From the NCBI RefSeq assembly GCF_026571515.1, contig NW_026852439.1:62001-126000 (forward strand): DNA of 64,000 nucleotides, given 5' to 3'. How positions within the stretch are numbered: position 1 is the stretch's first letter; every line of letters begins with the position of its first letter. Under the pieces are notes generated by a model. The model was not told where the DNA came from and searched no databases. It worked only from the letters and a program-made list of their open reading frames with translations. This document shows, one piece after another, positions 1 through 45,649 of the stretch. Source of the DNA: Ruditapes philippinarum (Eukaryota). The translations under genes were made by a program, and so were the position numbers.

Positions 1-2950
1 AATGTTTAACGAGTAACTTGCTGGAAACTGTAACAGCACATAACAATTTTTTTAGATAAGTGAAAGGCAGTCAGAAATGAGTCTGTTTTCCTAATCCATT
101 TAGTCTTTTTCAAATAACGATGTGCAAATTTAGCCTTCTACACTCAGTATAATATTGTTGGATAAATTTCTTTAACTGCTTTGTAAAATTGAGTATATTC
201 TCCCGCCTCATTCCTTTTACAACTGTCTTTTGTCTAACCTCTGAATTAAAGCTTCACGGCTGCACAATAAGAATAGATTTATGCTGTTTATTGTTTGTCT
301 TTGAAATATACATTTATTAAAATAAGATGAACGCGAAAAAGTCTCATACATTGTTGAAACTCATGTCTGCATACAGTCTGATTTCTTGCAGGCGATATTT
401 GTATTTTGAGTTTTTCAAGAAAACGCCGAGACGATATGAACGCCTAGAAAATGATTAATCACGCTTAATACAAGCTAGAAAACGTATGAAATAAGTGTTA
501 ATATCTATATATGTAAACTAACACACTACAAAAAATCTAGTTCTCTACTGCAAGAGACAAATAGTCGTGTTCTGGCAATTTGTGCTCAATCAATTTTGGT
601 TATTCACCTTACTTACCTTACTTACGTCATAGTCTACCGGTTAGTTGCCATAAACGATATCAATGCCCCCAACATTGATAAAGTCAACGACTCATTATGT
701 GTGTTGCATTTGAATTGTCTTCAAATTTTCTCATTGTTCAGTATGATAGATTACAGTATTTTATTAATTTATTTGAAGTACAAACATGGAGAAATATGTA
801 GAGATATATCTTAAGCGCTAAAATTAACTAATTTGTTTTGCAAAAATGTAAATTAAGTCCTTTTAAGACGCTTTGGTTCATTTTGACAGGAAACACAATA
901 ATACGTGTTTTTCTGACAAAATAATCCTTTTTAAAGTCCGCTTTTATTAACGAAATGATTTTCAACATTTGCATACATTATCAATGTTCTCTAAAAGAAT
1001 TTGTTGATGCTATCAGAATCATTTGGAATAAAAGGACATAGCAGCAACATGCGAGAATTTTCTTGTGCAATTTTTAAATATGTCCGACAAAAAAATGCTC
1101 TTGTTGCTTACAAAATAAAAAATAAAAATAAAAAAGATAAATGCATGTTCTTAAATTTGCATTTGAGGACAATTAATGACACCTAAATGCTCCTGTATGT
1201 GCATAATTTGAATTAACTTAAACCATCGTAGACGAAGCCAAACTATGACAATTACATAATTATATGCGATAGTTAATGACAAGCGCTCAAGGTAAATAAA
1301 ATAAAATAAAATAATTTATGTTTGTCCTAAATCAAAGCCGGGGAGAAATAACTAAATTACGCAAGTTTCTGTTCAGCATTACGAGTCTCTTTTATTTGTA
1401 ACATTTTTAAACAATCTATTGGAAGTTAAGATTTGTATGACTATACATGTAGTAATAGAAGTTTAGAATATTGTTCAGAAATATAACAAATTTGTCTTGT
1501 AATTTTAAGTTTATATGGCACATAGTTTTATGTAAAGCAGAAAAAATTTTTGGCTTGAAACTGAAGAAAACCTGTAACTGATCTATAAAGTATGTTGAAT
1601 TTCATTATAAACATTTTCTGATACATGACGTAAGAATGATGCAAAAATCTCCGTGTAAAATAGTTTTACTCGCTTTTATTAAATAAAATGATTTCTTTAT
1701 ATGAAAAATGTAACTGTCGGCAACAATAAGTTAACTATTTAGAAAACACATCAGTTTGGTATATATGAGGCCACATTTAAACTTACTAAAAGCAGCAACC
1801 TTCCAGACAAGAGTAAATTGAGTAAATTGAGTGATAAATTACATAAATTCTATTTCTGTGAAAGTATATCTCCATGGAAATTGCTTATTTCCTTTTTTGT
1901 CTGGTGTAAACATGCAACAGCAATTATCGAAATTGAAATTCACAGTAGTATATGTGCATGCCATTGCAAAGCTTCCTAAGAGTTCCGGTAAATAAGAAGT
2001 GGAACTCATTTTGATTAAAATTTCCGCCGCCTTTTATGCCACTTTTTGCAAATATATTTGTAAAGTTTTGTTTTATAAAAAGCTAAATATTTAAACGGTG
2101 TTGCTTAATACTCTGTACTTAGTTAATATTACGTCATTTCCTTTTATTAATATAATTGACATATTAGACTCATGCCAGACCATGAAGCTTGTGCACTTAC
2201 ACATCTTTTAGAAACTGCTAAAAATTATAAATGTGATAGTATTCAATTAAACTGATTCACCATTGCGGCTATTTTTTTAATTGGTTGTTACTTTAATATA
2301 AAGATCCTCCCACTTTTCAAGTACATAATTGTATTATACATTAGTTAAAGAAAATGCACTGCAGAACATATTGACAATCTAATTTCATTCTTGGAATGCA
2401 TCTTTCCGTTTAAGTAAATGAAAACTGGCAGCACAATGGAGCTGATTACAGGCCTTCGTATGATGATTTGTCTGCAAAAAAAGAGAGAAAAAAATGAGGC
2501 AACAACAACAACAACAACAACAACAAAAAACAAAAACAAAACTATATACAATGTATATAGGAAAAAATAAAATATACTTCTAGGAAATAAGCATTATATA
2601 ACAAGTATTGCATTGCATTGCATCTCCTACAAAGATACTTTATAGCTTTGCGAAAAACCCCTTGTATTCGTAGGATTTAAATAGAAATATAATGTGCACT
2701 TAGCCTTTGGAATTTTGTAAAATATGTCAAACAAGCAAGTATATCAACAATAAATAACAAAAAAATGTCTTTTTATTTTGATTGTCAAGGAAGGCTATGT
2801 ATATGTGGCAGTCATAAATTACTTATTATAATGACTTTCCATAACTACATACTACTTAATCTAGAGAAAAAGTATTAAAAGCGATAGGTTATTTCTGTGG
2901 CATGCATCTGGAAACAAGTCTATGTCACTTTCAATACTTTTTCAATGTAT
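1..2950 (+). pseudogene. TLR pseudogene A1 (5' end at or beyond the window edge; TIR 3' part inverted)
   Basis: LRR-like KLETYEISVN (~473-505); LRRCT-like FCESISPW (~1855-1878); post-TM YN*HIRLMPDHEA (2151-2189), matching the bivalve TLR motif RWHIRLxLYEA; TIR box1-like YKCD...KILPL (~2226-2315). The rest of the TIR lies inverted at ~2640-2950. Many stops and frameshifts. Confidence 0.75.
2500..2526. repeat. (CAA)n microsatellite
   Basis: Direct reading. Confidence 0.95.
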
Positions 2951-3449
2951 ATACTAATACTATATTTGTTAGTATTGCGTATATTAGGAATACTGTTCCT
3001 CGTTATTTTTATTGATAATACATGTATAAGTAATTGTCGATGACTCTCATATAAAAAAGCAATTAAAAGGTAAAACAGTTATGTCATCTTTGAATATTTC
3101 CAACATGTTTATTCCCATTGAATTCGTTTCTGTTAACATAAAAAAAAATGTGAATTGGTTTCCAGGTTTAAAAGTAAGGATTATAGGAAAGGAACCGACG
3201 TGTGATGATTTTCTGTCACATCTTTGGAAGTAAAACACATGTTCTTGTTATATGAAAACATGTTTTTGCCAGGCACAATCTTTAAATGCATTTAGGCATT
3301 GCCTGAATAAGTCTCTTTTTCACTTTGTTCGAATAATTTAATGAGTTTATTGCTTATGACAGCTCTATCTCTGAAATAAATTGATGTATTTCTGTTCCGC
3401 TGATAAAACTGACACGATTGATTAATATTGGCAATAACATTTATTAAGA

Positions 3450-6400
3450 TATATTCCAATATTTGCCTTGAAATTAATATATTACATTAGAACTTCTAAA
3501 TAGCGCCACGCACGCTCTGGTTTGTTGTTTACGTAAGGTCTATGAATACAGACATAGAGACGCCGTGTGTTTTTGTCTGAAATAGTATGTTTAGAGTTAT
3601 ATGTAATAACATTTATACATAATCTATTTAGTTTAACTGTGTAGGGAGTTATGAGCTTACAGGCTTGAATCAGTTCAACGAACACACCTAGACTGAATAA
3701 TAAATGTAAAACATGTAAAATGTTTACTCAAGGAAGCGATGGCTTGTCATTCCAAGTGACTTGCGATTTGTGCTGGTGCGCCGTAAAACCAAACAAAACA
3801 AAACGATCCTTACATTACTGACTGGACGCGTTAAACTTTCGGCTATAATATTATATTTCATTTTAAAATTTAGTATTTTAGTATTTTTACTACAATTTGA
3901 GAATATAAGAACATTGTTGTGGTTCGTGAATTTGTCACGTGGCAGTATTTGCGTTTTAGATATACTTACATATAAAATACGCCGATTTTTGTAGGAACTA
4001 CCGAACATAAATATGCAAAACATAATATTTATTGATCTCGCCGGCTGTATTCTTTTCAAACGTTTCTTTATTTTACTTTCAAATTGCATTACATTTTATT
4101 TTTATAGAATAAGCAAATGACTGTATTATGTTCGAAATCCTGTCAATGGGCGCGGGTAATTTAATCTTAAACAATTCTATCGTGAAAAGCATATTTAATG
4201 AAACCACCCAGGTATTTTATCTCATTTTTGAAGTGTTGAACATTTTTATCGTTGCACACATAGTCTTTTTATAATTTGATTATCTTTAATTTTCAGAAAC
4301 TATTTCTGGAGGGCAGGAATAGTTTCCACGAAAGGTCAGACATTTCTGTTTGAATTAACACTTTGGCTTTGATATTGTTTCTACTCCGACAATGATATGC
4401 TCATTTTTGCCAAATTGTAGGAAGATTACATCAGGTTAAATTATGTGAAATTTACTCAAATTCAGCTGAAGGTGATCGAATGAACAACGTTGTTAAGAAA
4501 TCATCAATATTACACACTTTGTTTATGTTAAAATATTGCATTTTGTCATGTTTACGTCAATGTATATTAATAAACTTTGGCATTTGATTGCTTGAAAACA
4601 AAAGTCTCGATAACGTTCTTTATATTAAGACATTAATTATATATTTAATGTATAGGTATGCATAAAGCGATTGGACAGCTTAATATACATGCTGCTTTGG
4701 ATCAATTAGTTGTACATGTATTCTAAGACTTTCAAATTCAATATGACAATTTAACTTGATGTTCAATTTATTGACTCCTGTCATCCTCATTAATAGTGTA
4801 TGTATTGATATGATATCATGAAGACAAAGGCAACAGTCTTGAATAACATGTACATAGAAAAAACATATTGCAGCAGAGTTGTATGATTTATTGGATATGG
4901 TTTAGAAGTTCACATTATATTGCCGCTATAGATAGAATTCTTTTCTACTTCAGACTTTTTAATAACAACACATATTAATAGAAAATGTCGGTCATAAATG
5001 TAACTTGCATATAGTTCATTTTATCATGTTTATATTTTTTGAGGCAGTTGTACCGTTGTAGGAATCAGTTTAACATGCTATCATGGCTATTTATAAACAA
5101 AAATTAGGTGTTTTAAATAATATTGAGTTTTTATTTTTACGAATTTATTTTATTATTTGATCATTTTTGTTTGTATTTGATAAAATCCTATAATATCATC
5201 ATTTTTATTCCTCAAAGGATTTAAATATTAATTAAGTTCAAACGCAAATACATGTATAATGTACGGATTGATTTGTTCTAAACATTATAACATAAATTCT
5301 TTTCAAGTTGCAGTCATTAAAACTCTCTTTTGTTTGTAATTTTCATATTCGACGTAATGAAATTATTTGCATAATTTATTGGCCCTTCGAGACTTACAAT
5401 TTGGACTTGAAAACAATATTTTCTTTTCATCAATCAAAACTACGAACACTGTAAATATTTGTTTTGTAGGAAGCTAAAAGTTGTTTGATCGTTTGAATTA
5501 TTGAGAACAATTGAGCAATTTACAAAAATCACAATTCATGCATAATTCAGTAAAAAAGAACTTCAGTAGAATAGTTGTGTTTAATATTACAAGGGAATGT
5601 TGTAATTATTTCTCCTTTATTTTTGTACATTACTTTTGGTTTTATAGGAGGTATTCAAGTATTTTTTCTGTATTTTACAAGTAGCAATAGAAACGAGTGA
5701 GAAATGATAATTTTTATGCAACCAGATGAAAATAAATCTCGTATTTACAGGTAAAAACTTTAATTTTCTGTTTATTATATACTTTTTTACATTTGAATGA
5801 CTTCTCCGAAATTTGTGTTAAATTCTTACAGTGGCAATGCAGAAAATGAAAGTAATGCATCAATATTACAATTATAAGTTTATAATCAATAAGGTTATTC
5901 ACATTACCTAGATTTAATTAATAATTGTACTTAACGAAATATATAAACAAAGATAAGTTCAAAACTTTATTGCAAAATTTATTTCAACTCTACAACTAGG
6001 TATTGTTTGTGTAAAAGAAATCATAAGGGTCATAAGACTTATAGAATTGTTAGCTCAGCTAGCACAACAATGACATAATACTGTCTCGTAGGGTTATTTA
6101 TCTTGAAAAATGGAACACATTAAGATGTATGTGTTGCTAAACGAACCTGTCTTTTTTTCGGTAAGTGAACTCAATTTCTAACACCAACGTTAGGCAATTA
6201 TTTTTAAATAATATTTGATTAATATGTAAAATTATGAAAATTATAAATTATTAAACACATCAACTGAACTCATCAATAATCATACAGTATATTAGACACT
6301 TTTGAACATAATAAACTTGATGTACCTGATAAGTTTTGATATTTTTCTCGTTATTTTTGACAAAATTTAAAAATTCAGACTTTGTGTAAAATAAACTCAG

Positions 6401-6740
6401 TAAGTTGTTACGTAAAATAAACAGTTCACTAGAAAATGTAATGTAATGTAAAATGTTTTGTGAGAGGAAGTTTTGTTTATTTTTTTTTTAAATATCTAAG
6501 CAATTTAACTAGAAAGTCAAATAAATTTCCACAAATACATTTTATTTTAGAAATATCCTTTACATTTTATTTTATAGTAATAGCAAGAACTATATTTTAC
6601 ATTTTAGTGAAGAACTATCTTAGAATGACAAAAACTATCCTTTACATTTTATTTTAGACTGGCCAATGAGATTTCTAGATTTTTCTTTTCATTTTACAAT
6701 GATTAAAGAAAACTCTTGTAGTGTTCAGTTCTTGCCTGTC
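3450..6740 (+). pseudogene. TLR pseudogene A2 (paralog of B2)
   Basis: Collinear with 39700-43050; post-TM HIKMYV (~6118); TIR box3-like LDWP at 6654-6665. Confidence 0.65.
3730..3803 (+). mobile_element. SINE 3' end fragment
   Basis: Ends tgtgctggtgcgccgtaaaaccaaacaaaacaaa, like the 3' tails of the other SINEs here; absent from copy B. Confidence 0.45.
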
Positions 6741-6774
6741 AATTTTACAAGAAGTCAAGTATATTTTAGACCGG

Positions 6775-7050
6775 TGTAACATTGTAAAGTGACCCCCACA
6801 GAATAATGATCCTAGGTCATTATTTTATATATAATAGTGACCCCCTTCGATAAAATAGTGACCCCCTTATATATAGGATAATGACCCCCTACTTTATCTA
6901 TAAAATATTGACCACTGACTAATATACTCTGTTAACGTCATATAACAATTGCGTATACGTGTTGTTGTTGTTGTTGTTGTGGTGGTGGTGGTGGTGCCTG
7001 TTGCTGCTTTTGGTTCTACTGCTGCTACTGCCGCGACAACAGCTGATAAA
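6775..7050. repeat. TGACCCC-motif minisatellite element followed by (GTT)n(GGT)n microsatellite
   Basis: Repeated (a/g)tgacccc units at 6789-6915 and simple repeats at 6960-7040. Homology to copy B stops here. Confidence 0.7.
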
Positions 7051-7699: not shown

Positions 7700-8950
7700 A
7701 TATAAATTAAATTATCATACAGAGTGCATTCAAGGAGACGACTTTATAGCACAGAAAGTGTAGTGTTTTGGCATATTCGTGTTGCATGCAATCTGTTTAT
7801 GATCTTTTTTTTATCAGACACATTGTTTTCCAGTCTAGTTTGTGCTTATTTTCTATGACATTCAAATTCATGAGAAAGGCAATGATCCATTAAAGTATAT
7901 TTTATTGATAAAAAGGAATTTAAGGTTTTTAGACTAACAGCATATTTTACACGTCATAATATTTTATTTCTATTTATCTCATGATAATGGACGAATTAAA
8001 ATTAATGGTATATTGCATTGTTTTGCCTTCTAAATCGGTATTGATACTTTAAAAATGTATGTATATGCAGTTTTTACTTCCCTTCGCATTTTAGTATGTT
8101 GGTTGTACACAAACAATTTATAAAATTGCCATTAGTATACATGTATTATAAAACCAAAATATGTTATTAAGATCTATAAAAATATTTAAACTCTATAATT
8201 TAAAAACATAATAAACATATCATTAAATTTTATATGCATTTATCTCTTGAATAGCATATTTTATTGATAAATGTTAGAAAATTGTTATAATGCTACCGCT
8301 ATATAACAGTATTATTTGTATTTCTGTTGATGGAAACATAGCGATCTATTGATTTCTTTAATGCTTTTTTTGTAAGAAAGGAAACCAAAGCTCAAAATAT
8401 TAATAATTGCATAGTAGGAATTTACAACTAATCTTCTATTTAATACAAATATCAATTATTGACATACATCTTGCAGCAAGTCAAGCTAATATTATTTCTT
8501 GTAAAGGGAATACAAACCATTAAGTCAATACCTTATTATATCTCCTAACGAAAAGTGTACTTTCTACATTCTACTTTTGAACTAAGTCAGCGAAGAATTA
8601 TCACTTTTGTTTCTGGAGGGCTTCTGTCAGACGAACAATTCTAAATTTCGTCAGAAGATATCATTCAATAGAAATTCATGCTTAATTGCAGAGTTTAAAT
8701 GCAAAATTTATCCGTTGTAATTAACATTCTTTGAAAGTTTTAAGAATAAAATCGTTAAATCAACACTAACGAGAAATTTTGCAAGGCACGTGTAAGCCTA
8801 TTACGCCAGCACAGCGTCACGGGCTGGCTTGATCATATTTTAATTTATGCAATATTTTATTTTTAACCAAGCTCTGTGAAACATTTATATTATAAGCACA
8901 AAAACAAGTACATTGATAATTGTTCTCACAAACGTCATGTTAAGAATATA
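7700..8950 (+). pseudogene. TLR/LRR ectodomain fragment T2
   Basis: KLKILIIA (~8388); LSLLFLEGFCQTNNSKF...FKC...NKIVK (8598-8760). 8140-8510 is homologous to 9560-9950 and 8510-8790 to 11305-11600. Confidence 0.55.
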
Positions 8951-8964
8951 AAAGCAACAGTTCA

Positions 8965-9186
8965 TTTTGGGGTTTGGGTTTTACTTTGAGACAACATAGT
9001 ATAGGTCATATGGCAACTTTCCAGCTTTATACTAGTGGAGAAAGGCCTCAGGTGCCCTTTCTGCATTTTTATCAGGCACGAACCTCCCTGAGTAGAACAA
9101 GCTACCTGGATAGCTTCTTCATATGAAAGAGTCCAAAATTTCTGTGTATGGGACAACGACCTTAACAACTCGGTCGGGGACGCCCC
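8965..9186 (-). mobile_element. tRNA-derived Meta-domain-type SINE
   Basis: Reverse strand reads gaagaagctatccaggtagc...gtgcctgataaaaatgcagaaagggcacctgaggcc...aaagctggaaagttgccatatgacctatac, like the copy at 44935. Imperfect TSD aaagcaacagttca / aaagcagtcgttca. Confidence 0.85.
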
Positions 9187-9199
9187 AAAGCAGTCGTTC

Positions 9200-11280
9200 A
9201 GAACCAGTGCTTTGTTTTGTATACAAATGTAATTGTAAGTGAAACTGACAATGGTACGGAAAGTCATAGGATAGGTCGCAAATGCAACACTAATGCAGAC
9301 ATGGATTTTATGAAAACGAACATAAGTCACCTTTGTGTCAAAATATATCTCAAAGGAAATTAAATTACTCCAAACCCTACAGTGAAATGCAGTAGCAATT
9401 ATTTTGATTAAAATTTCTGAAGGACTTAACACGGTAAATAACGTGAAGATAATTGGAATACTGTTAAAAAGTCTACTGTATGCGTCAATGGATTTTTGCT
9501 TTTTCAAATAATGTCTCTCCAAACAAAACTGATAATTGCCATGATCATAAAATGTTTATTAGTATTATAATAAAACAAAATTAGGTTATTACGATCTGTA
9601 AAAATTTACTTAAACCCTATTTACTTAAATTTAAATCTTAAAAGAAATAAAAATATCATAAGCTTTTGTATGATAATCATATCTTGAATAGCATCTTTCA
9701 TGGTTTAATGTTCAAATGCTACCGCTACACAGTATATAACAGTATTATTTGTATTTCAGTATATGGAAATGTAGCAATCAATTTATTGATTTCATTACTG
9801 CATTTTAAGTTGTAAAAGATACCAAAGCTTAAATAATTAATTATATAAAAGGAAGTCAGACCCAAATCTCATTGTTTTTAATACAAATATCAATAATTGA
9901 CATACATCTTGCAATTAGTCCATTTAAAGTTATTTCTCGTAAAGGGATTCATATACCAAAATAATAAAAAAAGCTTTCACTGAAAATACATTGATTTGTT
10001 TTAGCTTGGCATTAGATTCTTTGCTATTGATTTCAATGTTAATAACCTTTTGCAGCTCTTCCCAGTGGTTGCAAAATAATAGTTTCCAGTCACTGTTATG
10101 TGAATTTATCTCAATTATATCTTAATGGGTAGGATAATGATACACTTAGCAATATTATTTGAGAAATCAATTTCACGTTATTGTTATTATTCCATTTAAT
10201 AGTTTAGTATTATAGAACTCAATTCCAGAAATATATTTATTTAAATAAATATAAAAGTATGCGACTGAATGTTTTTATTTGTGAACATTTTTTTTTCAGG
10301 AAAAAATACAGAATAATTAGCGATTAATATTTCATTAACACTAAGACATCTAAAAGAGTTTTGATAACATTTCACGATTTGAACGCCTTATTAGCATTAA
10401 AAATCGTACTTTAAAGTTGTAGTGTTAAACTATAAAATTATTGATTAATGCAATCTATTTCCAAAGGAGACAATTTTGTAGTTTTACACAATCAAAATTA
10501 CACCGAAGGCAAGCAAAAACGATGTGTTTACTATTCATAAGTTTTTCAATTTAACTAAAATCATAAGATAAGCTTACTAAACTCCATCGCTGAGTATAAA
10601 GGAAAAGAAATGCAAATTGTCCAACGGTTATTGGTACATTATTCCAAATTTAGTGTTTTTATTTTCATTCTTGAAGCGTGGAGAGATAAGGGAACTTAAA
10701 TAAAGACTAAAAAAAAACCTTACCACACATTCATACTATCTTTGTATCGGATGTTAATATTTATTTTTCATTTATAACATTTATAATGAGCAATGATATT
10801 GAAATGTCTATTTACTTCATTTACTACAGTTACTTTTATTCTACCTTTCCAATGTTAAATTTATAAACCACTTAATAAGTAATTTTGAAACGATGAAAAA
10901 ATGCTCCAAATTACTTTTTACTCAAAATTAAATACAAATTGTCAACATGGTGCAGACGGTTCCAGGAAATACAGTTCACTTATGTTTGCAAAATGTGTTT
11001 ATTCCAAACTATGTGTGACACACAGACTTCTCTTGTCAGCAAAGTAATGCAAAATCACTATATTATTGTTTGCGCACTCAGGATATATCGCAACACCTCT
11101 TAGATGTTAGACATATGTCAGACTGCATCGAAACATCATGTTCGACTATAATAGAGAAACGTGTTTTGTGGTATTTTTGTTAATTTCAATCTGAGAACAT
11201 CATTTGAAATATCATTCATGCATCATTTGAAATATTATTCAAGAAAACCTATGCAGACAAGGGAAAATAATAAAAAAAAC
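9200..11280 (+). pseudogene. TLR pseudogene T3
   Basis: NISHLCVKIYLKGN (~9319-9360); AIDFNVNNLLQLFP and NLSQLYLNG (10023-10130); weak TIR-like KLCV and MFDYN (11006-11152). Confidence 0.6.
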
Positions 11281-11299: not shown

Positions 11300-13300
11300 T
11301 CTTTTACGTAACACACCTATTTTAGTCAAAACATTATTTTATCTACTTACGAAAAGTAAGATAAGTAAGCGAAGAATTATCACTTCTACAGCATACAACG
11401 TAGCTTATCCCAACAACTCGTTTTGGCTTATGGGATATGAGTTTCTGGAGGATTTCTGTCAGACGAAAATTTCATCAATAGAACTGAAATTCCTGCTGCA
11501 GAGTTGATGCAGGATTGATCCGCTGTAATTCATTATCTGCCAAAGATTTAAGAGTAAAAGCACTAAATTATCCTTAATGAGAAAGATTCGAGACATGAAT
11601 TAAATATCTAGATAATGTAGTTAATACGGCGATGATCAACTGCTGAGTGTTGATGTTTGCGATATATGTTACGAAAACATTTGATAACACACAATTTTAT
11701 CTTTGACAATTTAATATAATGCACGTGAGTATAATGCTCAGTGGTGTAAACATATTTTAGCACAATGCAATTTAAGAAAGAGATAATTATCATTTTGATG
11801 ATATCAATCTTTGTAATAAAATTTCATCACCAAATTCATTCTACCAAACAAAAAGTACTTTTTTGCTGTTTTCAATTATTTGATAACTATCGTGAACGGT
11901 AAAAACGAAACACGGAAATGTGTGATTTTATCTTGTATTTTATCTAATGCCTATAAAATTATGCTATTTTTTAGATCTAAAGATAATTCGTTAAAGTCGT
12001 TTCTAGCATACAGTTGTGATAAAATAGCGTTTTAAGTAGCGATTTAAAATATTATATAGTTTAAACAGAAATATATTTTCAGATATAAATTGCGTACAAA
12101 ACAACACAGCACCACTTACAACTTCAAACAAAAAAGTAATTAAATGCTTCTCAATCTGACATAGTACAATAAAATTGTAGTATCTAAAATTTACTTTACA
12201 CTTTTTTTTTAAAATTATATTTAAATTGTATTTGTTCTACGTACTGGTATATTAAGGAGCTTTTCTTATATTTTACAATGTAACATATTTAAGGTGATCA
12301 ATTGTGAAGATTAAACGAAAGGCATTTCTGTAACCTTGAAACGCCACTTACGCCTGTTATAAAACGCGAGGACAACAAATTTCGAAATAACTACCTTACA
12401 AATAGAAAGTAGTTTCAAAATCTGACTTAAACATGCGATTTTCTAATGACATTACAAGTATTAAAGGCCAAAAAAATGAAATACAGTAGGTGTTTTAATG
12501 CTATTATTATAAGGGATAAAATCAAACTTTAAATTTTTGCTGAAATTCGATAATGCATAACGTATAGACATGCATCCGATGTACATGTCTTTGTTGTAAG
12601 TACCTTTTGAACAAAATAAAAAAATAATATAATATATGAGAAAAAGTGATCAATTAATCAGAGGACCGTTGTAGTAGCTATCTAATTTTTAAAGGATAAA
12701 AGCTTTAAGGTTTTTTAATGTCTTCTGCATATATTTTGCAGTTCCGAACGTTTAGGCAGAAATTAAATGCTTTCAGAGACATGATATAGTTGAATGTCTT
12801 TTCACAATTTCTCTGGTGCCGACATGTTAATGTTACATCAACAATAAATTGTAATTTTAAGCCGAGTGTTCGCGGCAGACGAATTTATAACAAGTAAATA
12901 AAAACCGTTTCAACTGCTTTACGACCCGTATCTCCATAGTAATAGACAACGTTCTTGGTTTTTTCTGGTTTAATTGATTCCGTAAAAGGAAGTTTCTGCG
13001 AGGCTTATATACATGATGGCTGCATTGTTACGCAACTAGGCTACGGATGATCTCTCCATTAACATTTAGACTTTTAAAAACTTATTGTAATGAATAAACC
13101 AAACAGTATCAAAACCTTACATTTTAGAACAATCATTTATGCTAAAGAATATCTTCAAAAGGAAAGGAGAATCCAATTAGATGACACAGCTGTCAATAAC
13201 TTCAATGATATTTCTCATTTTGAACTTATATATACATAGCAAAAATGATTTTATTCGCATCAAATGGACATCAAATAAATATTTAAGCTATCTTGTGTAT
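11300..13300 (+). pseudogene. TLR pseudogene T4 (5'-truncated)
   Basis: LRR stretch homologous to T2 and to the minus-strand copies at 33100-33350 and 53350-53600; INLCNKISS (~11803); TIR box1-like YDPYLHS...W (~12920-12960). Confidence 0.55.
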
Positions 13301-26830: not shown

Positions 26831-27632
26831 TCAGTCACAAGGGTATAAAGCGTTTGATACTGCAGTAAACGTTAAACATGATTTAGTTCGCGTACTTGCC
26901 CGATTATCTTAAAAGTTTTAAGCCGACATATTCTGTAATTTTACCAATTTCTTGGCTTCGAAATTTATCATGATGTTTTCAATGTAATTGAAACTACAAA
27001 GTTCATAAATTTCGTTTTTTCTCTCAACATTTTCTGGTTCCCAAAATAAGTATTTCTGTTTTCAAAGTAATTGATACTTCAGAGTTCAGCAACTCCTAAA
27101 TACTGAATTGCGAATTATTAAGGTCATGTCAAAATATACACTTCTGAAATCTGGAATTCTATAGAACGTGCAAAATGTCGGTATCTCACAGTTAGCGCTG
27201 ATAAACCTAAAATCATAACCTGTCAAGAAAAATACCCGAATATTACGAAAGTAGCTAAAACGCTTATGTTACATCAAACATATTCAAGAGTCAAATTGTG
27301 ACGGTAACTTTATACTGTTTGATCCGCAATGTAAGTTACACTTATCCAAAAAAGATTCTAAAATTGTGTCATTTTATATAATTGCACCACTTTCATTTTA
27401 TTATATTGTTTTTATGTACCACTGTCATAACAAGTTGTGAATTGCAGTTACTCCGGTCCAGATACTAGTATCTGAATTCGAGAAACTTTAGAACCCGCAC
27501 TTTTTGGCTTGTCCTAATGATGGTCATTTTTTCAGAAAATACACAGTAACTGCAATACAATCAAGCGTGTAATGTCCGGAAACCAATAGAAATCGGCATT
27601 TAATTTAGCAAAAAAAATATGAAAGTGTTTAC

Positions 27633-28080
27633 TACGGAAGCTTATCAGGGCCTACAGTTGATGAGATGTTTTGCGCTAAGTCGACTTATTTTTAAACGCT
27701 TTGATAATATGTTTTTGCATTTCTCAATAAAATTTACTGACAAAGATGAGAAGCTTTTAGGCATTGCAATTGATTTTTTTTCGATATGCTTGAAGCTTTT
27801 GTCTCTTCGATAGATATCCTGTCGAAACTTCGTGATTTCATGACTTTGCTGAATTATTTAGTAAGACGCAAAGACGCTACTTGCATTGACAAATAGCTCA
27901 CGTAATTCAAGAAAAGTTTTTGGCAATGATTAAAAACCTTTACGTATTCTTCATGGAATGTTTTATGTATTACGTATTAATCATAACAGCTTCATGGAAT
28001 GTTTTTGGTCAAAATGAGAAGAAATAAGTTGACATGACGTGAAACTTTAAGATAAGTGGAGGCCCTGATAAGCTTCCGTA
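27633..28080. mobile_element. Non-autonomous DNA transposon (IS3EU-like MITE), copy 1
   Basis: Perfect 21-bp TIR TACGGAAGCTTATCAGGGCCT; 6-bp TSD GTTTAC (27627-27632 / 28081-28086). TAY..RTA ends with a 6-bp TSD are IS3EU hallmarks. Confidence 0.9.
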
Positions 28081-28267
28081 GTTTACAATTTTAAACGACA
28101 TTGGTGAAACTTAGTAAACAGTATGTTACCGGTTGGAAGTTACCAATATAATGCAGGATAATGCGGGTAATTCAAATTTGCAAAGGTGTTTCATATTATG
28201 CTCTTTTTAACATGACATGGCAAAACTCTCCATTTCTAAGATAATCATTTCACAAACAATAGACAAG

Positions 28268-29898
28268 TACGGAAGCTTATCAGGGCCTCCACTTATCTAA
28301 AAGTTTCTCGTCATGTCAACTTGTTTCTTCTGGTTTTGACAGAAAACATTCGATAAAGACGTTATGATTAATACATAAATCATAAAACATTCAATGAAGA
28401 CGTAATGATATAGAGGATATTTGTTTGTTTGTGTGTAAGATGAAATTTTATTTCATCGAGTGGGCTTTAAAAACAGTATTCTCGCGAGTGGCGTAGCCAC
28501 GAGTGAGAATACTGTTTTTAAAGTTCACGAGATGAAATAAAATTTCATCTTACACAACAAACAGACAAATTTTCTTTTTATTTTATGCTTAAAAACAAGT
28601 TAAAACAAAATTTCCATAATTTTAACGTTAATATTAAAATCTGTTTAACCCATTGAGATCCCCATTTAGACGGAATTTCTCATTAAAAACAAGAAGTCTT
28701 GAGCTGAAAAATAAGTCCGCCAATAAAGGTTAAATGACGGTGATATTTATTCATTTTATTAAAAAAATATGAATGATCGCTTGTTTTAATAATAAAAACA
28801 AACAATTCTTGTAGGAGAAAAAGTCCAACCATCCATCCATATTTCTGTTACTTACTGCGAATTTATATTAGACCTGGCTTTGTAAAATGTAAGCAGCAGC
28901 CATTTTTTAAAGTTGTGTATTTCATGGGAGGAAAATAATTGTGTAAGATTCAGAGGGATATAATTTGGATTTGTTAGTCATACACCTTTTTAAAAGAAAG
29001 AAAACTTATTTGAGGATTGTAACAGACAAACAATAAGTGTTGACAGAAGTGAAAACATTCAGAAAGGGAGCTAGGAAAATGGAAAACTTGGAAGCTTGCT
29101 AAGGAACGCTGGGTTGTTTTACTTATTCTACGAGTGATGGCTGTCAATGCTTTTCAATTTTTCATAAAGCATACGGCAGTTATTGCTCGTAGGATACTTT
29201 AATATGCCCAAATGTCATGAAGAGCAGTTTTGCATGGGGAAGGAATGTATTTTTCAGACTGCAAAAACGAAACAAAAAAAATTAGAGACGAAATTTGGTG
29301 ATTGGAATTTGAATGAATAGAAGTAAGTTTTCTCTCTTTATTACTTTTGACATTTAAGTTATTTATCTATTTCAGCTTTGCTATTTCTTTTAACAGCCTG
29401 ACATTGTCAGAATTGTCAGTAAAAATAAAATTGAGGTACCACATGGGGAAAATCTTAAAAAAGTAGTTTCGTCATTGAAAAAAGTGAAATTATATTTTGA
29501 TAATTTTCACTGTGAAATTATCAAATATAATTTTCACGGATAAATCAGTAATCCACTGAAAAGCATAAAATAAAAATACATAATATGTAGAAGTTTTTAA
29601 TCATTGCAAAAAAGCTTTCTTGAATTACGTGAGATATTTGTCAAAGCGAGTAACGTCTTTGCGTCTTACTAATTTTTTCAGCAAAGTTGTGAAATCAAGA
29701 AGTTTCGACAGGATTTTTGACGAAGAGACAAAAGTTTCAAGCATATCGAGAACAATTTATGTGCAATGCCTAAAAGCTTCTCATCTTTGTCAGTAAATTT
29801 TATTGAGAAATGCAAAAACAGCATATCAATGCGCATAAAAATAAGTCGATTTCGCGCAAAACATCTCATCAAACTGTAGGCCCTGATAAGCTTGCGTA
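28268..29898. mobile_element. IS3EU-like MITE, copy 2 (opposite orientation, with nested insertion)
   Basis: Same TIR with one mismatch at the right end; 6-bp TSD GACAAG (28262-28267 / 29899-29904); body is the reverse complement of copy 1. Confidence 0.9.
28408..29575. mobile_element. Nested hairpin-bearing non-autonomous element (Crypton-like?)
   Basis: Absent from MITE copy 1; ~150-bp palindrome at 28419-28570 centred on gtggc-gta-gccac; internal IR tttattttatgctt (~28577-28590) pairs with terminal aagcataaaataaa (29561-29574). The family assignment is inference. Confidence 0.75.
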
Positions 29899-30058
29899 GA
29901 CAAGAGCACTCTTAAAAATGATTTTTAATCCTTTAACTTGAGAAATCGTTATGCGCCTTTAATTGGTTTCGTATAATTTAGATAACTATTTGCTCCGATG
30001 TAAAAGGACTAATGCCCCAAAACATGAGTTAAACACACTGAGCATGAAACTAGGTATT

Positions 30059-30235
30059 TCCGTGGCAGATTGGTCATGATCGTTCACTTAAAACCACTAG
30101 CCCCTGACCTCTGCGAGTTCAAGACGCGCCTGGAACTATGGATTCATGTTAGAAAACTATCAAGCTAGCCTACGTCGATGGTTCTACTCAAGGATCCGTT
30201 TCGCCTGTAAAAAGGCATGGAGTAGTCATGCGTCT
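30059..30235 (+). mobile_element. Meta-type SINE (degraded)
   Basis: tccgtggcagattggtc...accactagcccctgacc...gagttcaag...gaaaactatcaagctagcctacg...ggttctactc. Confidence 0.7.
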
Positions 30236-30249
30236 CATAAGGATAAAAA

Positions 30250-31520
30250 TCGATACAAATACACTCTGCTAATATGATTTTATTTGCCTTCATATTTTCT
30301 TAAATAATAATTTATAAATACACAAATGTGTTAGAATTGGCACAGAAAAAAAGACTAAAGGTTCCGACTAGTCGATTGATAGTGGCGATATAATGATAAT
30401 TGTAAGTTGTCAAAGATATTCTAACATGACATTTTTACACTTCAGTTGAAATTGTTAAGCAGAGCTTGTGTGTTGTTACCAGCCTTAGTGAGTAAACAGG
30501 TTTTTTGGATTTTTTCATGAGAACATTTTGTAACGAACAAAATATATTTATAGCCTGTTTGTCAATGGATGAAAGTTATATAAGAAACTGTGAACAGACA
30601 TTTAACTATACCAGTCTTTGAAACATTTGACTTTTGAATCGGAACATGTTTTATGTTATGATATAATATATAGTATGATATTTTTAATTGCAATATGATA
30701 TTTTTTTATTTCAATACAAAAATGTTTCTCTTGCATTTAAAAAAATATTTGCATGCAATTTATGGTTGAAAAATAAAACATGCTACACATTTACACAGAT
30801 GCTAAAAAACAATGCATTGTACATGTGTACGTTCTTGTAAATTAAAATAAAGTAGAACAATGAATAAATAAACAAAGAAATTGAAATTTTATTTACAAAT
30901 GTAATTCAAAATATAAGTTAAATGTGAATAGAACTTCAACATACATTGTATGAATGCAAAAGTTTTTTAAAAGTATAAAATTGCTCTAAAAATGCAATCT
31001 AAATTTCCGAAAAAAAACAACAACAACAAAATTATAGGTTACAAAATGTTTTTTCACGTTTAAAGTTCACAAAAGTAAAAATATGTCCTCGATATGAATT
31101 TTGCTTTCAAGATATGCTGCTTACCTATGACAATACAGATAGTTTCTAAGTATACTAAATGCTTAAATTCTAGTTTAAAAAAGGATTCAATATGGTTCAT
31201 CCTTGAAGTATGTAAATTTAATTGATTAGATCAATCAAGATCAATCCTACATCTAATTCACAAACATTCTTAAAAGCGTTGCAATTGTCTACACCTAATT
31301 TAGTGATTTAAGGATTTAAACTTTTCACGTACAATGATTGCTTTAAGGCTTTAAGGAAAAAATGTAATTTCCTTGGAGATATATTTTGACACAAAGAAGA
31401 TTTATGTTTTTTATTAAATTTAACCATGTCTGTAACAGTGTTGCATTTGTAACCTTCTGAACATTTGTAACAGCTTCACTAAAAGTCTAAAATTAATAAA
31501 CCTACATTACTAAAAGTGTT
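30250..31520 (-). pseudogene. TLR LRR ectodomain fragment (paralog of the T3 5' part)
   Basis: 31460-31360 minus is homologous to 9275-9370 plus (NINLLCVKIYLQGNYI); MNHIESF..FKHLVYLETI; FHPLTN; IATIN. Confidence 0.6.
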
Positions 31521-31849
31521 CTTCAGCTTGCAGCTAGCTACAATATGAGTACATACGTACCAAGCTGGGTAAGGGAATTGTATTTTCCTTGCTGATGTGC
31601 TTGTAGACCAATGGTCGCGAGTTCAAAACATTCACATGGGATGGATTTCTTTTTACAGATGTATTTTCATCTTTATGTAAGGAGTTAATTTTCGTAAAAT
31701 AGAGAACGCCCAAAGCGGTAAAATTGATATTGCTGCAGGCTCGGATTAATCGAGCATGTTCATGAACAGTTATGTGAAGTGCAATCTACCGTCCACGCCC
31801 CATAGCACCGTCTTTAGCAGAATTCATCATCTAACATAAAAATGTAAAA

Positions 31850-32700
31850 ATTAAATGCACCCGAAGACGTGTTTAATTTACCTATTAAATTCTATCATAG
31901 TTTACCACAAAGCAGTTGTAAGTTTTTTTTTAATTTGTACAAGTGTGAACCATCGAAAGCAAAATTACACGAAAATTGCAAATTCGGTTTAAAATTTCTT
32001 TGGTTGACAGATCAGTGAGTTGACACAACACTCATTATAAGTATAGGAATACGTACATTTTTATATACTCGAATGAAATGAAACAATTGTTTTGTGATAC
32101 GTGTAAACAAGATTTTGACCATATTTTCGCTGTGACTCAGTACATCAATGATATTATTTTTCTTCGACTATTATGTTATAACAGACTCCATTAAAAATTG
32201 ATTGTTTTCCTACACACGCTTATCACATGATTTTGTTTGAATAAGACACAGTCGGTTTCTTAGTAACACTACTTTCAATGATATCACCTTGATTAATATT
32301 ATTATTAAACAAATCTTCTGGGATGTGTTAACGTTGCAACGGCACGTCACAATTACTATGCAATAAAATAATTTATTGTTAATCATTTTGAGGATTATAC
32401 CCAACATAATGAGGGATGTTGCTCATTTTTTTTCAAATATATTTGTCACAGCTTAGACATTTATAAAGGAAACAAAACAGACTTGGTCAGTCCATGAGAG
32501 ACGGAATGTGCAGAAATCTCTCACGCCACCTAGCACCTGCTTCAGCAGTTTGCAGCATATATTCAATCACGCCAAATAGTATCTAGTTTGATACTTAAGA
32601 GTCGTTCAATCCTGTCTGTCGTGAAAATATTTCAATATAACAAATTATATTTCAGTATAACAAAATATTTCATTACTATGCGATAAAACAGTTACAGTAT
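31850..32700 (-). pseudogene. LRR fragment
   Basis: HIPEDLFNNN / KVISL (~32327-32275). Confidence 0.4.
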
Positions 32701-32769
32701 ATTGGACAAGGCACGAACTTATTTCGATTTCTGCAACGAAAGATAAGCAATAGTAAATCTTTTTTCGAA

Positions 32770-34000
32770 ACTCTAGATTTTCATTTTCTCACATTTTAAG
32801 AACATTTGTGTTTCTTTTAATGAATTTTTTTCTAACAAACTGCTATTCTCTATCAATATGTCATTGGAGTCAGAAACCAGAAAAAAAATAGAAATGATAA
32901 TGTTCAATGTTTGATTTTGGGCCTCTCAGTGATCATTATTAAAACATTATTAAAAAAGTGTGCTTTTCTCAAATCAAATGAAATAAATGAACTGGACGAC
33001 GTTTTAAAAGTGTTCTGTGCAAAAGGCTTTCACACCCCTTTCTAATATATTCAGCCCTATGAAAATCGCATCCTCAATTGTTTCCATACAATATCTCGTA
33101 CACAACAACTTGCACATCAATAATGCTGTAAATCATTGCCTTGCCATATTTAAGTACATTATCTAGATATCTAAGTCATGTGTCGAATATTTCTCGCTTT
33201 CGCGATGATTAGCGAATCTTTTCCAGAAGCTTTTGCAGAAAATACCTTACACTGCATAAATTCTGCATTAAATCCTCAGATAATTATTTCATCTGACAGA
33301 AGTGCTCCAGAAAGTTAATATCTTACAAACCTAGAAGAGTTGCTATCTCGTGCTATGTTTTAGGAATGATCATTATAATAATTTTTTTTTTTTTTTGCAA
33401 TTTCGGAAAAAAAACAATAAATAAATAAAAAAACAACAAAACATAATAGAATAAAAACAAAAAAACAACAACCCTTTGTCATTTAAAAATAAAAAATGAG
33501 TTGACTAAAATGTCATTTTTTTCATTAATCATTCTGGTAAGAGGTAGGTTATTTTAAGACAGTTAAATATCTAAATTGTGTTGACTGATGTGTTTCCAAA
33601 TGTTTTGGAAAAATATTTCAAATGATCGTCGTATGAGTAATTGCAATGGCGTGTGTTTCTCAGCCATATCAAACAATCGCCTGAAGTTTTACACATGGTT
33701 ATTTTAAGACAATTTATTTTATGTAAATTGTGTTGACTGTTGTGTTTCCACATGTTTTGGAAAAAAGCGTGTGTTTCTTTACAATCAAACAATCACCTGG
33801 AGTTTGACATATGACAATCAACATCGTTATATTCCTTACGTATATAATGCAAATATCTGGTTTTATTTTTAAAACCAAATATAAATTGTGAAATTTCAGA
33901 CCGAAAAGTGTCGTCTATGTGTTAACATTTGAACAGAAATAGGCACGTCAGAGTAATCTTTTTTTCTGAAACTGTCTGCATCAAATTGACAATCATTTAT
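32770..34000 (-). pseudogene. TLR LRR fragment T12 (block B; TIR lost)
   Basis: Homologous to the T2/T4 LRR stretch (FLEHFCQM, LRYLDN) and collinear with 52990-53613 plus 57429-57770. Confidence 0.55.
33547..33815. repeat. 150-bp tandem duplication
   Basis: ggttattttaagaca...aaattgtgttgactg...tgtgtttcca starts at both 33547 and 33697. Confidence 0.85.
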
Positions 34001-34129
34001 AATTTCAAATCAGAACAAAAGGAATATGCATTATGATCATCTAATAGTAAATACATAAATTAATAGCCTATTATTGGATAATTTTTAATTATATCAGAAC
34101 TAGGCATATTGTTTTGTACTTCAGAACTT

Positions 34130-37100
34130 ATATTCCAGCCTAATGGTCTCATATTGAGCACATGCATTATTTTACTAAATGATTGTATTTGCTTTGAGTG
34201 CAACACTTTAAATTTGGCCATCCCATCTTCTGCTGAACAATTCACTATTCCAAAATGCATTTTGTATCTCAACTCAATAAATTACAAACTGTCACATCAT
34301 GTTGCAAATTTGATTAGCAGAATACATTACTGACTTTAAATCTTGTTACAAGTAATATTTATGACTTTAATAGAGTTAAATATCCATATATCACAATCCA
34401 CGGATGTTATCCAAAGGCTTTCAGAATAACACTGATCGGAAGTGACATAATGTTTAAGTATTTTTGAATTATATTGCACCTAATCTGAATATGAATTTTG
34501 ATATTCATGAAAAAAGGTATTAGGTGACTTGACAACATTACAAATAAAAAGTATGTTTCTTTTCGCAAAAAAAGTTTAAGTACAACTATAAAGGCTCCTA
34601 GTAAGGTACAATGATCGGAAATTACATGCGATTGTTTTCGCAAGACAGGGTAAATATAGGATTGCATTGTAGGTTCTTAAGACAGGGTTACAGTGACTTC
34701 GTTTATCTACTGTGGACAAAATACCCCCCTCCCAAAAAAATATAACAACCAATTGTGTTATAACTGAAATACATTTAAATATTTTATGTAACTTAAGATG
34801 GCTGAGAGGTTACGACTTCAAATCGCTTTAATTTACTCACCGCTCGTGGGTAGGTTATAATATGCTGCATATATTTTCATGTGAGGAAGCTATCTTTGAG
34901 TTAGCATACGGACTTATTGTGCGGTTACTCAAGACGTCCGAAACTCAAAATTAAGCTGACATAAAGCAATATAATGAGAACAATATCGACGTGACTTACA
35001 AACTTATTAAACAACATATTTTGTGTGCATATAATACATAAGCGTGATACTGCATTGTTTGAAAAGTACAAGTATATTTTTAGCATTTCTTTCTTCCAAG
35101 ATTCGTTGCCACTAGCAGGCCGAGTTTACGATGTTCCAGCTAAACACTATACCTTACGACCTTTATTTCTACTTTTCTGTGACTTACCGTCAGAATGGCT
35201 TTCACAAGATTAAGATCATTGTGAAAATACAATAATTAAAAGACAAACAAATTCAAATTGCATGAATGTTTGGAGATCTTAAGAAAGTAACTGATTTGTT
35301 TGATATTATATTATTATTATGACGTGAAACTACATTACTTTCTTGTATTGAAGAGCAAAACATACCTCTAACGCAAAGCTAAAGGAGTTTAACAAGCAGA
35401 TTTGCAAGTAAGACAGTTTCTTTCTTTTAACATCGTAAATTCATCGAATAAATCCTTCCAGTGATTGGAGATTATAAACCATGAGTAATTTCTTGTCGGA
35501 TCGGGGCAAAATAATCCATGTACAATATCCTGTTTTAAATTTAATCAATCATCTGGAACAAGAACATTTGAAGAATTATTTAAACTAAGACATTTTTATC
35601 AAAGAAATACATTCTTTATGAAAATACGTGGTTTCCAAAATAAGCTTCAGGTATTTACAAACTCGACATATTGCAATGAGTACTGATTTCAACTTCTGTT
35701 AAAGTATTCGCATTGCTCGAAGCATGCATTATGTATCATTCCCATTGCTGTTTTCAGAGAATTGCATCGGTAAAATGGTGTGTATTGATTTCATTAAACT
35801 GTAACTTGAGCTCGCTTGATTTTTATGACTGGCGTAGAAATCAAATTATAATTTATGTCTTGTGTTACGACATTTTTATAGAATTAATCGGTGTTTTAGT
35901 TGATATCCTATCTAATTTCATCTCCGGTTTTATTGTTTTCAGACAATTACCTTTGGTAAATTACCTATTGTGTAATCTTGTAACAGTTTACATTATTTAT
36001 TCATCTATTTATAGACGTGCGAATATGTAAGCATGTTTAATCAATTTTTAAGTTACTTCTCTGAAGTAAATGCACTGGGAAGGGCTTAATTTAATGTTGT
36101 AAGAACTTGTTGCCCAACCTATTTGCATTTTGATAAATACTCATTATTTGTATGATATGTTTTTTAAACATGTTTTAAATAGAAATAGAAATTTTCACGT
36201 AAAATTATCATGTATTATTGAATATGTTTTGTTCACAGACAAAAAAACAAACAATTTCTCTATGAAAACGGATACTTGTTATAACAATTCCTGCTATTTT
36301 TGTTCAGTTGAAAAACATCTTCGAAAAAAAAAAAGAAAGAAAAAAAAGACATTACAAAAATATTTAGGCATATCCGGCATCAAACAAAAACAACTTGTTT
36401 CTTTCTGCAGAAAGGGTAAACATGCTATTTATAATATCTAATGGTGTGAGAACATGTAAAATGCTTAACACTTGATGAAAATAGCTCTTGTTTGAATAAA
36501 TGTATGGCAATGAAGAAAAGTATAAAGAAATTTATATTTTGACTTCATAAAATTTACTTAATCACAATAACTACACTAACTGCCAAATGCGAAAGAACAA
36601 ATGTTGGCTCATCTGTATGACTTATACGTATTGTTTTAAAAACTATATCTGGACACAAAATAGCTTTTAAAAGATAAATAATACTTAGTTACTGTAGTAT
36701 TAACGCACTTTTGACAACATTATTATTTTAAAGAGTATTGCTTGTATTTGTAAAGGTTATCTTCGTACCATAACGGACAAACTGTTGTTAACAAATATAT
36801 CGCAATATTTATAAAATAATAATAAATTTATATACATGCATAATCTATTAATATTCTTCTTCTTTTTTTGTCAAAATAACTGACAAAATGATCAAACACG
36901 AATGGTATTATGAAACATATAAATTAAAAATTAATGTCGAATAAGTATTTCATTTGACAAGCAAACATAATTTACGAACGTATTTATACTTGATGATGGA
37001 GAAATCAACAACAGAACGTAGGATTATTTTACAAATCATGTTTATATCATATATATTATAATCAATTTCTTTTTGGAATATTGAAGTAAAAATGTGACGG
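34130..37100 (+). pseudogene. TLR pseudogene B0 (possibly two fused partial copies)
   Basis: ORF 34109..34333 has LILSTCIILLNDCICFEC...IPKCILYLN (signal/LRRNT-like); PKAFR; MFGDLKKVTDLF (35266); RTFEELFKLRHF (35561); hydrophobic TM-like stretch in ORF 35713..36030; TIR-like FVP* (36761) and EWYYE (36900). Confidence 0.65.
34790..35015 (+). mobile_element. Meta-type SINE (shared with copy C)
   Basis: gatggctgagaggttacgacttcaaatcgc...catgtgaggaagctatc; equivalent copy at 60470-60690. Confidence 0.75.
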
Positions 37101-37399
37101 TTGAAAACAGTATGCATGTCTTGTTGGTTGATCTAAAATTATTAATATAATAATAGGCACAAGCCTCTTTCTGCAGAAATGACAAACATATTTTATAATG
37201 TTATAATTTAAATCAACTTAGAACATGTGAGATGTGAATAATTAAGCTGAAAAAAATAATGTGAACTATTTGCGATGAATGTAGCAAAATGTAGACAAAA
37301 TAGTGTTTTGACTTCATTTTTGTTCTAATTGCCAAAGCTCAAAGTAGCAAAAGGTATTCAGCTTTATGTTTATTGTGTAACTTGCCGGAAAAGTGTAAC

Positions 37400-39520
37400 A
37401 AAGCATGAAAAACTTTTGAGAGGTTAAGATGATGAAATGTAAATTGTTACATCGTAAAAAAAAGAATATGGTTTAATATTTTTTTTTCTCATTTAGAACA
37501 TGTGTGTATACTCCTGTTTGATAATTCATACAAGCGGATCTACTAAATAGCTAGATTAGCAAAACAATTATTTTATCGATGAAATACAGTGAGAAATACA
37601 TATGTTTCCGTAGTCTTTCACATTTTTAAAACAGCAAAAAAAATGCAAAATTGGCCTTTCAACTCAATATGATATTGTTTAGAATTTTCTTTATAAAAGT
37701 GTTATCTCCTCACGTCCCATTCCCGTTTCAAATGTCTTTTGTCTAACCTCTTGATCAAAGCTTCACTGCTGCAAAATAAGAATAGATTTATTTTGTATAT
37801 TGTCTTTGAAATATACATTATTAAATAAGATTACCGCGAAAAACCTCTCATATATTATTTAAACGCATGTCTGCATACAGTCTGATTTCCTGCAGGCAAG
37901 ATTTGTATTTTGAGCTTTTCAAGAAAACGCCGAGACAATTCTAGGGACTCGAAAATGATAAATCACGTTTCAAGCTAGGAAACGTATGAAATAAGCGTGA
38001 ATATCTATCTAGTATATAAATAAATAAAGTATAATAAATATATATATGTATAAACTAACACACTACAATAAATAAGAATTATAGTTCTCTCCTGCAAGAG
38101 GCAAATATTAAGTCGTGTTTTGGCAATTTGTAATCAATCAAATTTGGTTATTTACATTACTCACGTCATAAACAACCGGGTACTTGCCATAAATGTAAAA
38201 AAAATAAAATAAATGTGTATCTGTCTCTTTTATTTATAACATTTTTAAACAATCTATTGGAAGTTAAGATTTGTAAGATTATAGTAAAAGTTTTGAATAT
38301 TGTCTAGAAATATAATATATTTGTCTTGTAATTTAAGTTTGTATTGCATATAGCTTTATATCAAGCGGATTACAAGAATTTTTGGCTTTGAACTGAAGGA
38401 AACCTTTAACTAATGTATCCGAAATGTTGAATTTCATTGTAAAGCTATTTCTGATACATGACGTTAACACAATGCAAAAAACCCTACATGTATAATATTT
38501 TGGTAATGGTTTTACTCGCTGGCAACAAACTGTTCAATAATTAATAGGAAAAATGTAAGTTTCGTCAAAAATATGTTAACAACATTGATACGTACTTTTT
38601 GGAAAACACATCAGTTTTGTATAAATGAGACCACATTATCACCAAGATTCCAGACAAGAGTAAATTCAGTGATAAATTACATAAATCCTATTTCTGTGAA
38701 AGTATATCTCCATAGAAATTGGTTATTTCCTTTTTTGTCTGGTGTAAAAATGCAACAGCAATTATCGAAATTGAAATTCACAGTGGCATATCTCTATAAA
38801 TTAGGTGCATGCCATTCAAAAGCTTCCTAAGATTTCCGGGGAATAAGAAGTGGCACTCATTTTGATTAAAATTTCTGCCGCCTTTTATGCCACTTTTAGC
38901 AAATATATTTGTGCAGTTTTTTTTTATAAAAAAAAGTTATATTTGAACGATTTTGCTTATTAGTTTGTACTTTGTATGATTCAATTGTTTAATATTACTT
39001 TTTTACCTTATATTAAAATAATTGACATATTAGACTCATGCCATACCATAGAGCTTGTGCACTTACACATCTTTTGTAAACTGCTTAGAATTATATACGA
39101 ATATTAAATGTGATGACATTCCATTATAATACTGATTCACCATTGCGGCGATCATTTTATTTAATTGGTTATTATTTTTTAATAAAGATCCTATCACTTT
39201 TCAATACATTGTATATAAAAGTATTTTAAGTGAGATAGACTTGTTTCCAGATGCATGCCACAGAAATAACTTATTGTTTTAATATTTTTTCTCCAGATTT
39301 AGTGTCATGCAGATATAGATAGCCATAATAATAAGTATAAGTAGTTTATGTCTGTCACATGTACATAGCCTTCCTGTGAAAATCAAAAAGAAAATCTTTT
39401 GTTTGTCATTTATTGTTGATATACTTGCTTGTTTATGAGGTAAAATAAAGAAAGTGTGATCGCACTTTAATCGTAAAATTTGTTTTTTTATACAATCATT
39501 CAACATAATGACAACATAAA
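37400..39520 (+). pseudogene. TLR pseudogene B1 (paralog of A1 and C1)
   Basis: INETTLSP and NP..CE (ORF 38573..38830 region); FRG..THFD; *HIRLMPY (39023-39046); box2-like EIDLFPD; LCLSHV (39346-39363). Lacks the segment equivalent to A ~655-1385. Confidence 0.8.
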
Positions 39521-39699
39521 TTTGTCAAAAAAAATTACCAGACACAATCTTTTAATGCATTAAGGCAATGCCATAAGACATACAAAATAAATCTTTTAAA
39601 AACTTTGTTCAATTAATTTAATGAGTTAATTGCTTATGACATGAAATGAATTGATGTATTTCTATTCCCCTCATATAACTGATTAATATCGGCAATAAC

Positions 39700-43622: not shown

Positions 43623-43679
43623 ATTCTCACCTACACCATGCTTCATCCAGAGAAACAGCAACATAACACTATTATAATA

Positions 43680-45620: not shown

Positions 45621-45649
45621 AATCATATTCATGAAATCATGAGATGATT

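Follow-up and report, generated by a model that had tools for sequence, protein, structure and literature searches.

Tandem units and repeats in the window

The window, by which we mean the whole 64,000-nucleotide stretch of Ruditapes philippinarum DNA analysed here, has a GC content of 30% and, as revealed by blastn comparison of the window with itself, contains three collinear units, A, B and C, arranged head-to-tail in tandem:

39-6774, + strand: unit A, 73-79% identical (gaps included) to 37560-43088 and 62606-63987 by blastn; its upstream part precedes the window
32814-43088, + strand: unit B, the only unit that is complete within the window
53053-63987, + strand: unit C, with aligned pieces at 53053-53611, 57470-58645 and 60289-63987, broken up by insertions that it alone carries and truncated where the window ends
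58650-60291, no strand assigned: insertion private to C and missing in B, with 20-base inverted repeats at 58650-58669 and 60272-60291 that are 90% complementary

The ten aligned pieces between units have diverged at 12.7-18.2% of aligned sites and contain 129 internal indels. The three-copy segmental duplication proposed in the original prediction is borne out with respect to the tandem array of three units, but not with respect to its parts, i.e. segments A1 (in A and B) and B0 (in B and C) are each present in two copies within the window, and only ~61-690 is present in three. Over the 552 columns of this three-copy piece, the distances are 0.167 (A-B), 0.190 (A-C) and 0.139 (B-C).

Several further rearrangements and repeats accompany the array. 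The 1.6-kb insertion in C is of higher GC content, has TTA/TAA-like flanks and looks like a non-autonomous DNA transposon. A 220-base piece (2729-2941 versus 39217-39434), lying just 3' of the HIRL stretch described below, is inverted between A and B. Another piece, of 260 bases, occurs four times (248-507, 37757-38007, 62804-63067 and 63233-63486), the fourth copy arising via a local repeat in C; its CpG words are kept and an acceptor-like TGCAG is present in three copies. Older local duplications are found at 8120-8509/9547-9947 (73% identity) and 44426-44800/46336-46759 (65%), and nested inverted repeats of 318 and 136 bases, at 88%, occupy 27632-29899, which is probably one miniature transposon within another. 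At 40200-40760, where read depth is very high, a CCGT microsatellite is followed by tandem units of 165-169 bases, which we take to be of the Helentron-associated type.

Dispersed sequences were identified as follows:

1788-2018, no strand assigned: element K, the 'LRRCT' of the original prediction, an old sequence dispersed as distant copies that lie in either orientation
9238-9486, 31231-31480 (inverted), 44773-44861 (inverted), 46643-46868 (inverted) and 38643-38868: copies of element K
33289-33313, 53537-53561, 11442-11466 (- strand) and 8610-8634 (- strand): a 25-base motif
~34795-34945, + strand: decayed SINE-like relic in B0, truncated on its 3' side; it is 15% from its C0 counterpart and 47-57% from other copies in the window
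60466-60620, + strand: the SINE-like relic in C0, in register with that in B0 by alignment of the two

The distant copies of element K are ~65% alike, those at 9.2 kb and 44.8 kb being followed by a SINE; the bins containing K do not have high read depth at 88% likeness, and pairwise comparison of the K copies revealed no codon periodicity. Four copies of an old element, up to ~38% apart, retain the 25-base motif, where 0 would be expected by chance. A metagenome scan with this motif returned one locus (L001, 56% GC), which has no blastn match to the window and was rejected as a chance occurrence.

The SINE claimed for corresponding sites of B0 and C0 was found in both, in register; the nhmmer E-values for the relic (0.018 and 0.22) are those of weak matches. 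By eye, it aligns with six other copies in the window, and its core word is common to SINE-derived reads. The B0 and C0 relics were compared over 80 columns in which three or more of four other SINE copies are in agreement; 26 departures are common to both relics, and 13 columns differ between them. These shared and private changes imply that the relic decayed mostly before the duplication, having aged ~4 times longer before than after it, with the proviso that few copies served for comparison and that these may be of other subfamilies, which would inflate the pre-duplication age. The SINE of the window is presumably of the bivalve type. Its likeness to the bivalve tRNA-derived SINEs with highly conserved domains (PMC11481361) would lie in the apparent tRNA-like head and common core word of the relic, in the window having six or more copies and in the high read depth of the best-kept copy; two short words have no match in eight text supplements of that source.

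Codon structure and the sharing of stops

The copies have diverged with no sign of coding constraint. Mismatch pairs at 3n distance are not in excess in any of the ten aligned pieces (0.299-0.345, versus 0.322-0.327 expected), including those of A1/B1 (0.310 versus 0.325) and B0/C0 (0.332 versus 0.327), and 28 of the 129 indels are multiples of three; for A1/B1, 12 of 16 are not. The absence of codon-position bias between copies, which the original prediction anticipated, was thus observed, with indels that are blind to frame. When applied to simulated pairs, the periodicity test detected 59/60 at a dN/dS of 0.2, 32/60 at 0.4 and 14/60 at 0.6, and 10/60 when half of the divergence was neutral. 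None of 12 older paralogue pairs manifests codon periodicity.

The cheapest open path through the shared stops is equally costly on the two strands (+ versus -, 7.0/7.5 and 9/9 for A1/B1, and 11.5/11.5 and 14/14 for B0/C0), in keeping with a non-coding reading. Some observations run against that reading. The A1/B1 path is slightly cheaper than in shuffles (p ~0.03 on +, 0.06-0.10 on -). For piece 39-654, 0 of 150 shuffles gave as cheap a path on the + strand at one setting, with p 0.05 at the other. There are 146 ORFs of at least 60 aa, compared with 127 in Markov simulations. Piece 39-654 has few shared stops on the + strand. The longest ORFs, at 8962-9555 (- strand, 197 aa) and 54493-55047 (- strand, 184 aa), have no Pfam match; the former spans element K and a SINE, and no homologue of it was found.

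The lesions on which the original prediction was based lie in the following features:

1385-2326, + strand: segment A1, the first 'pseudogene' of that prediction, 14.6% diverged from 38223-39209, with 16 indels
2145-2171, + strand: Y*YN*HIRL stretch in A1, with TGA at 2157-2159, four base changes from the TLR juxtamembrane motif
39011-39037, + strand: Y*NN*HIRL stretch in B1, with TGA at 39023-39025, five base changes from the same motif

Segment A1 has 13-34 stops per frame over 314 codons and came out as non-coding in every test. That the TGA is common to A1 and B1 was confirmed, the aligned positions being a match. As to its proposed identity as the W codon of RWHIRL, the literal match is to HIRL alone, with N (AAT) as the residue preceding the TGA and a second stop three codons upstream. 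At the site of the supposed LRRCT frameshift, the alignment of 1845-1880 with 38683-38718 is gap-free and contains two substitutions, of which one creates a TAG private to B1 (TGG in A1); a shared frameshift is undefinable there without a reference ORF, none of which was found.

With respect to the proposed catalogue of shared and private lesions, the stops in the three + frames of A1 are mostly shared with B1 (43, versus 23 private and 9 unaligned), but many lesions are private and the sharing is at chance level. When the pieces are pooled, the copies have in common 337 of the 511 stop triplets of the + strand and 310 of the 470 of the - strand (~66%), compared with 4495 of 7191 triplets of any kind (63%); for A1/B1 alone the corresponding values are 43/66 for stops and 578/874 for any triplet. 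TGA is common to copies in 90 of 150 cases on the + strand, i.e. the prior for one shared TGA is ~60%. Because any triplet is shared at an equal rate, on both strands, the shared TGA says nothing on the order of events. Shared 'lesions' are, indeed, the default, since all copies inherited the ancestral content, of which the SINE relic and each TGA triplet were part.

Evidence bearing on possible former TLR genes

Mussel TLRs are single-exon and often in tandem duplication, according to PMC10279657, the mollusc TLR sequence table of which contains RWHIR 13 times and WHIRL three times, e.g. in LYKYRWHIRL. This precedent, along with the few base changes that separate the A1 (four) and B1 (five) stretches from the motif and the LRR-like words seen by eye in B0/C0 (LFSDNF, CDCYRK), favors an alternative in which the units were single-exon TLR genes, long dead, that were then copied as passengers. 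We consider it unlikely, although it is the best placed of the alternatives. Sites at four changes from the juxtamembrane motif number two in the window (A1, which is tied best, and 1504), compared with 0.3 expected, and those at up to five changes number five, compared with 3.0 expected; as A1 and B1 represent one event, the likeness is suggestive at best. The A1 HIRL stretch lies ~94 codons after a YLHGN word, the spacing being ~85 residues in one real TLR row of the table in PMC10279657; five of six window words are absent from the same table, which counts against a TLR origin.

Motif searches around the HIRL stretch gave values at the level of random sequence. The best match to the LRRCT motif (NPxxCxC) upstream is at four changes, equalled by 0.63-0.64 of random regions, and across the upstream LRRCT motif and four downstream TIR motifs the fraction of random regions that do as well ranges from 0.46 to 1.00. 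LRR cores scoring >7 are neither enriched nor biased in strand (A, 0 on + and 2 on -; B, 3 and 2; C, 3 and 0; controls, 5 and 6, and 3 and 2). The 'LRRCT' stretch itself, i.e. element K, is also present at four distant locations, in either orientation. Such tests weaken with decay, in that 8% of LRR cores are left after 25% decay and 1% after 40%, such that a TLR decayed by more than ~25% would escape them. If, however, the SINE relic is younger than the death of the gene, the latter would be ~40% decayed and its motifs unreadable by eye.

Database searches also argue against former TLRs. No LRR or TIR domain was found by Pfam in 57 stop-read-through frames (covering A 1-3800 on +, A 1300-2500 on -, and parts of B, C, K and the 33-kb copies, with A 3800-6800 and B 40200-43100 outside this scope), the only matches being weak and below cut-off; a TIR is absent from 2100-3800 and 38950-40200 by the same criterion. 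The 146 ORFs of at least 60 aa gave no LRR or TIR match, and four Pfam matches with E <0.01, all below cut-offs. Three C0 frames searched against the PDB returned 0, 0 and 1 match (E 0.79, chance). A phmmer search with one A1 frame against 1.84 billion proteins returned no TLR and a single match, a 47-aa 'hypothetical protein' that is 81% identical and derives from one contig; we read it as another allele of the window DNA. Word-based protein searches with 8965-9555 (-), 53353-53613 (+) and 35680-36027 (+), which constitute weak evidence, found nothing, an Atlas search with 38507-38827 had no usable match, Rfam gave 0 matches, and 'RWHIRL' was not found in the main texts of the relevant literature. 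For 35680-36027, Atlas gave a hypothetical cluster at 0.90 and nematode GPCR leads that fall below recognition level; these were set aside.

The likeness to the single-exon TLR tandem clusters of bivalves (PMC10279657) thus consists of the tandem layout and one YKYRWHIRL-like stretch, whereas, in contrast to those clusters, no ORF, LRR/LRRCT/TIR signal, protein homologue or transcript-level RNA peak was detected here. The blocks as former TLR or other genes are unsupported, and neither Pfam, PDB, phmmer, motif nor LRR-core tests sustain the 'dead genes' of the original prediction. Its proposal that duplication followed pseudogenization holds in the weak sense that the DNA was already non-coding when copied, but former gene status is unsupported; in the same way, its reference to selection for receptor dosage lacks a demonstrated gene to which it could apply.

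Identical tracts, transcription and origin of the array

We favor the interpretation, with a probability of roughly three in four, that the units arose long ago as tandem copies of DNA which by then was non-coding. Two tracts are of note in this regard:

33104-33196 = 53354-53446, no strand assigned: 93-base tract identical in B and C; among 2000 shuffles, no run was longer than 80
6381-6443 = ~42735-42797, no strand assigned: 63-base tract without a mismatch between A and B; the 95% point of shuffled maxima is 53

Eight identical runs of at least 35 bases were observed, compared with 1.8 expected (2000 shuffles), which is a poor fit to plain neutral drift. The 93- and 63-base islands, which may stem from gene conversion or from constraint, are an unexplained residue. 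The 63-base tract contains GTAAAATAAAC twice, a sequence that we take to be forkhead-site-like.

These perfect runs, together with the 25-base motif kept across four divergent copies, AG- or GT-like words seen by eye at some island edges and RNA at ~1-5-fold depth over non-repeat bins, are what would be expected if the units belonged to live paralogous genes and consisted largely of introns or flanks, with the islands being small exons or cis-regulatory elements under selection. This possibility is, in our assessment, somewhat less probable again than that of dead TLRs. Whichever of the six frames is considered, replacement changes exceed silent ones in the three most conserved islands, i.e. 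there is no silent-site excess, and a strict scan for acceptor-donor pairs kept in both copies gave one 21-base candidate; the micro-exon idea was rejected, as the candidate is unsupported by the read joints listed. Position 33182, within the 93-base tract, is G in both B and C of the assembly, but C in all aligned reads and contigs of three other runs (4/4 and 5/5 RNA reads, and 4/4 DNA contigs) and in the distant copy at 11.4-11.9 kb. The G is compatible with this haplotype having undergone conversion recently, or with an effect of the assembly, and its presence in both copies of the assembly only fits recent copying better than constraint; read/assembly differences are known from 40 of the 1448 listed, so the rest of the 93-base tract is uncovered.

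RNA depth was derived from two RNA runs and two contig sets over 30000-49900, a range that has unit A outside it. Per direction, depth is ~12-550 in repeat bins, 1.2-2.8 in B0 bins (32656-35975), 0.5-1.8 in B1 bins (37968-39959), where it is not above that of the neighbours, and 0.1-2.2 in the unique bins at 45272-49255. No RNA start or end peaks were reported over 30000-49900, where the two directions are similar overall, and the 15 read joints listed (433 more exist) are all in high-depth repeat bins, with no GT-AG skip in unique sequence among them, which argues against live genes; at a bin width of 664 bases, weak small exons could escape. The RNA pattern over B fits intron or background and speaks against an expressed single-exon gene in B1.

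On the preferred interpretation of old non-coding copies, ~10 kb of DNA that lay between genes or within an intron, and was made up of a patchwork of decayed repeats, would have been duplicated twice head-to-tail, most likely by unequal crossing-over. Unit A probably split first, with B and C separating later, as the three-copy distances weakly indicate. The copies would then have drifted by ~8% each, gaining the private indels, the inversion and the transposon insertions that are observed, and a few short tracts were most likely homogenized afterwards by gene conversion between copies. The array shares with tandem duplications of non-coding DNA by unequal crossing-over the head-to-tail units, the even neutral divergence, and the old shared and later private insertions; it differs only in the few tracts whose identity exceeds what drift would leave. 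In such genomes, neutral tandem duplications of DNA rich in repeats are commonplace, and the duplication reported here, although real, is ordinary.

Least probable of all, in our view, is that a long-dead TLR cluster was triplicated as a passenger and that its copies, ~15% apart and 20-37 kb distant, still exchange short tracts by gene conversion in living populations, the 93-base tract with its G being the case in point. Were it true, the locus would provide a readable record of immune-gene graveyards that grow without selection; if intact TLR relatives were to align here, part of the apparent receptor expansion would be passive copying of dead loci. As it stands, the finding is of little significance beyond its use as a caution. 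In AT-rich DNA, copies that are 15% diverged share two thirds of their stop triplets, and LRR-like words turn up in any frame; as both are to be expected, an independent reference gene is needed before shared 'lesions' can date anything.
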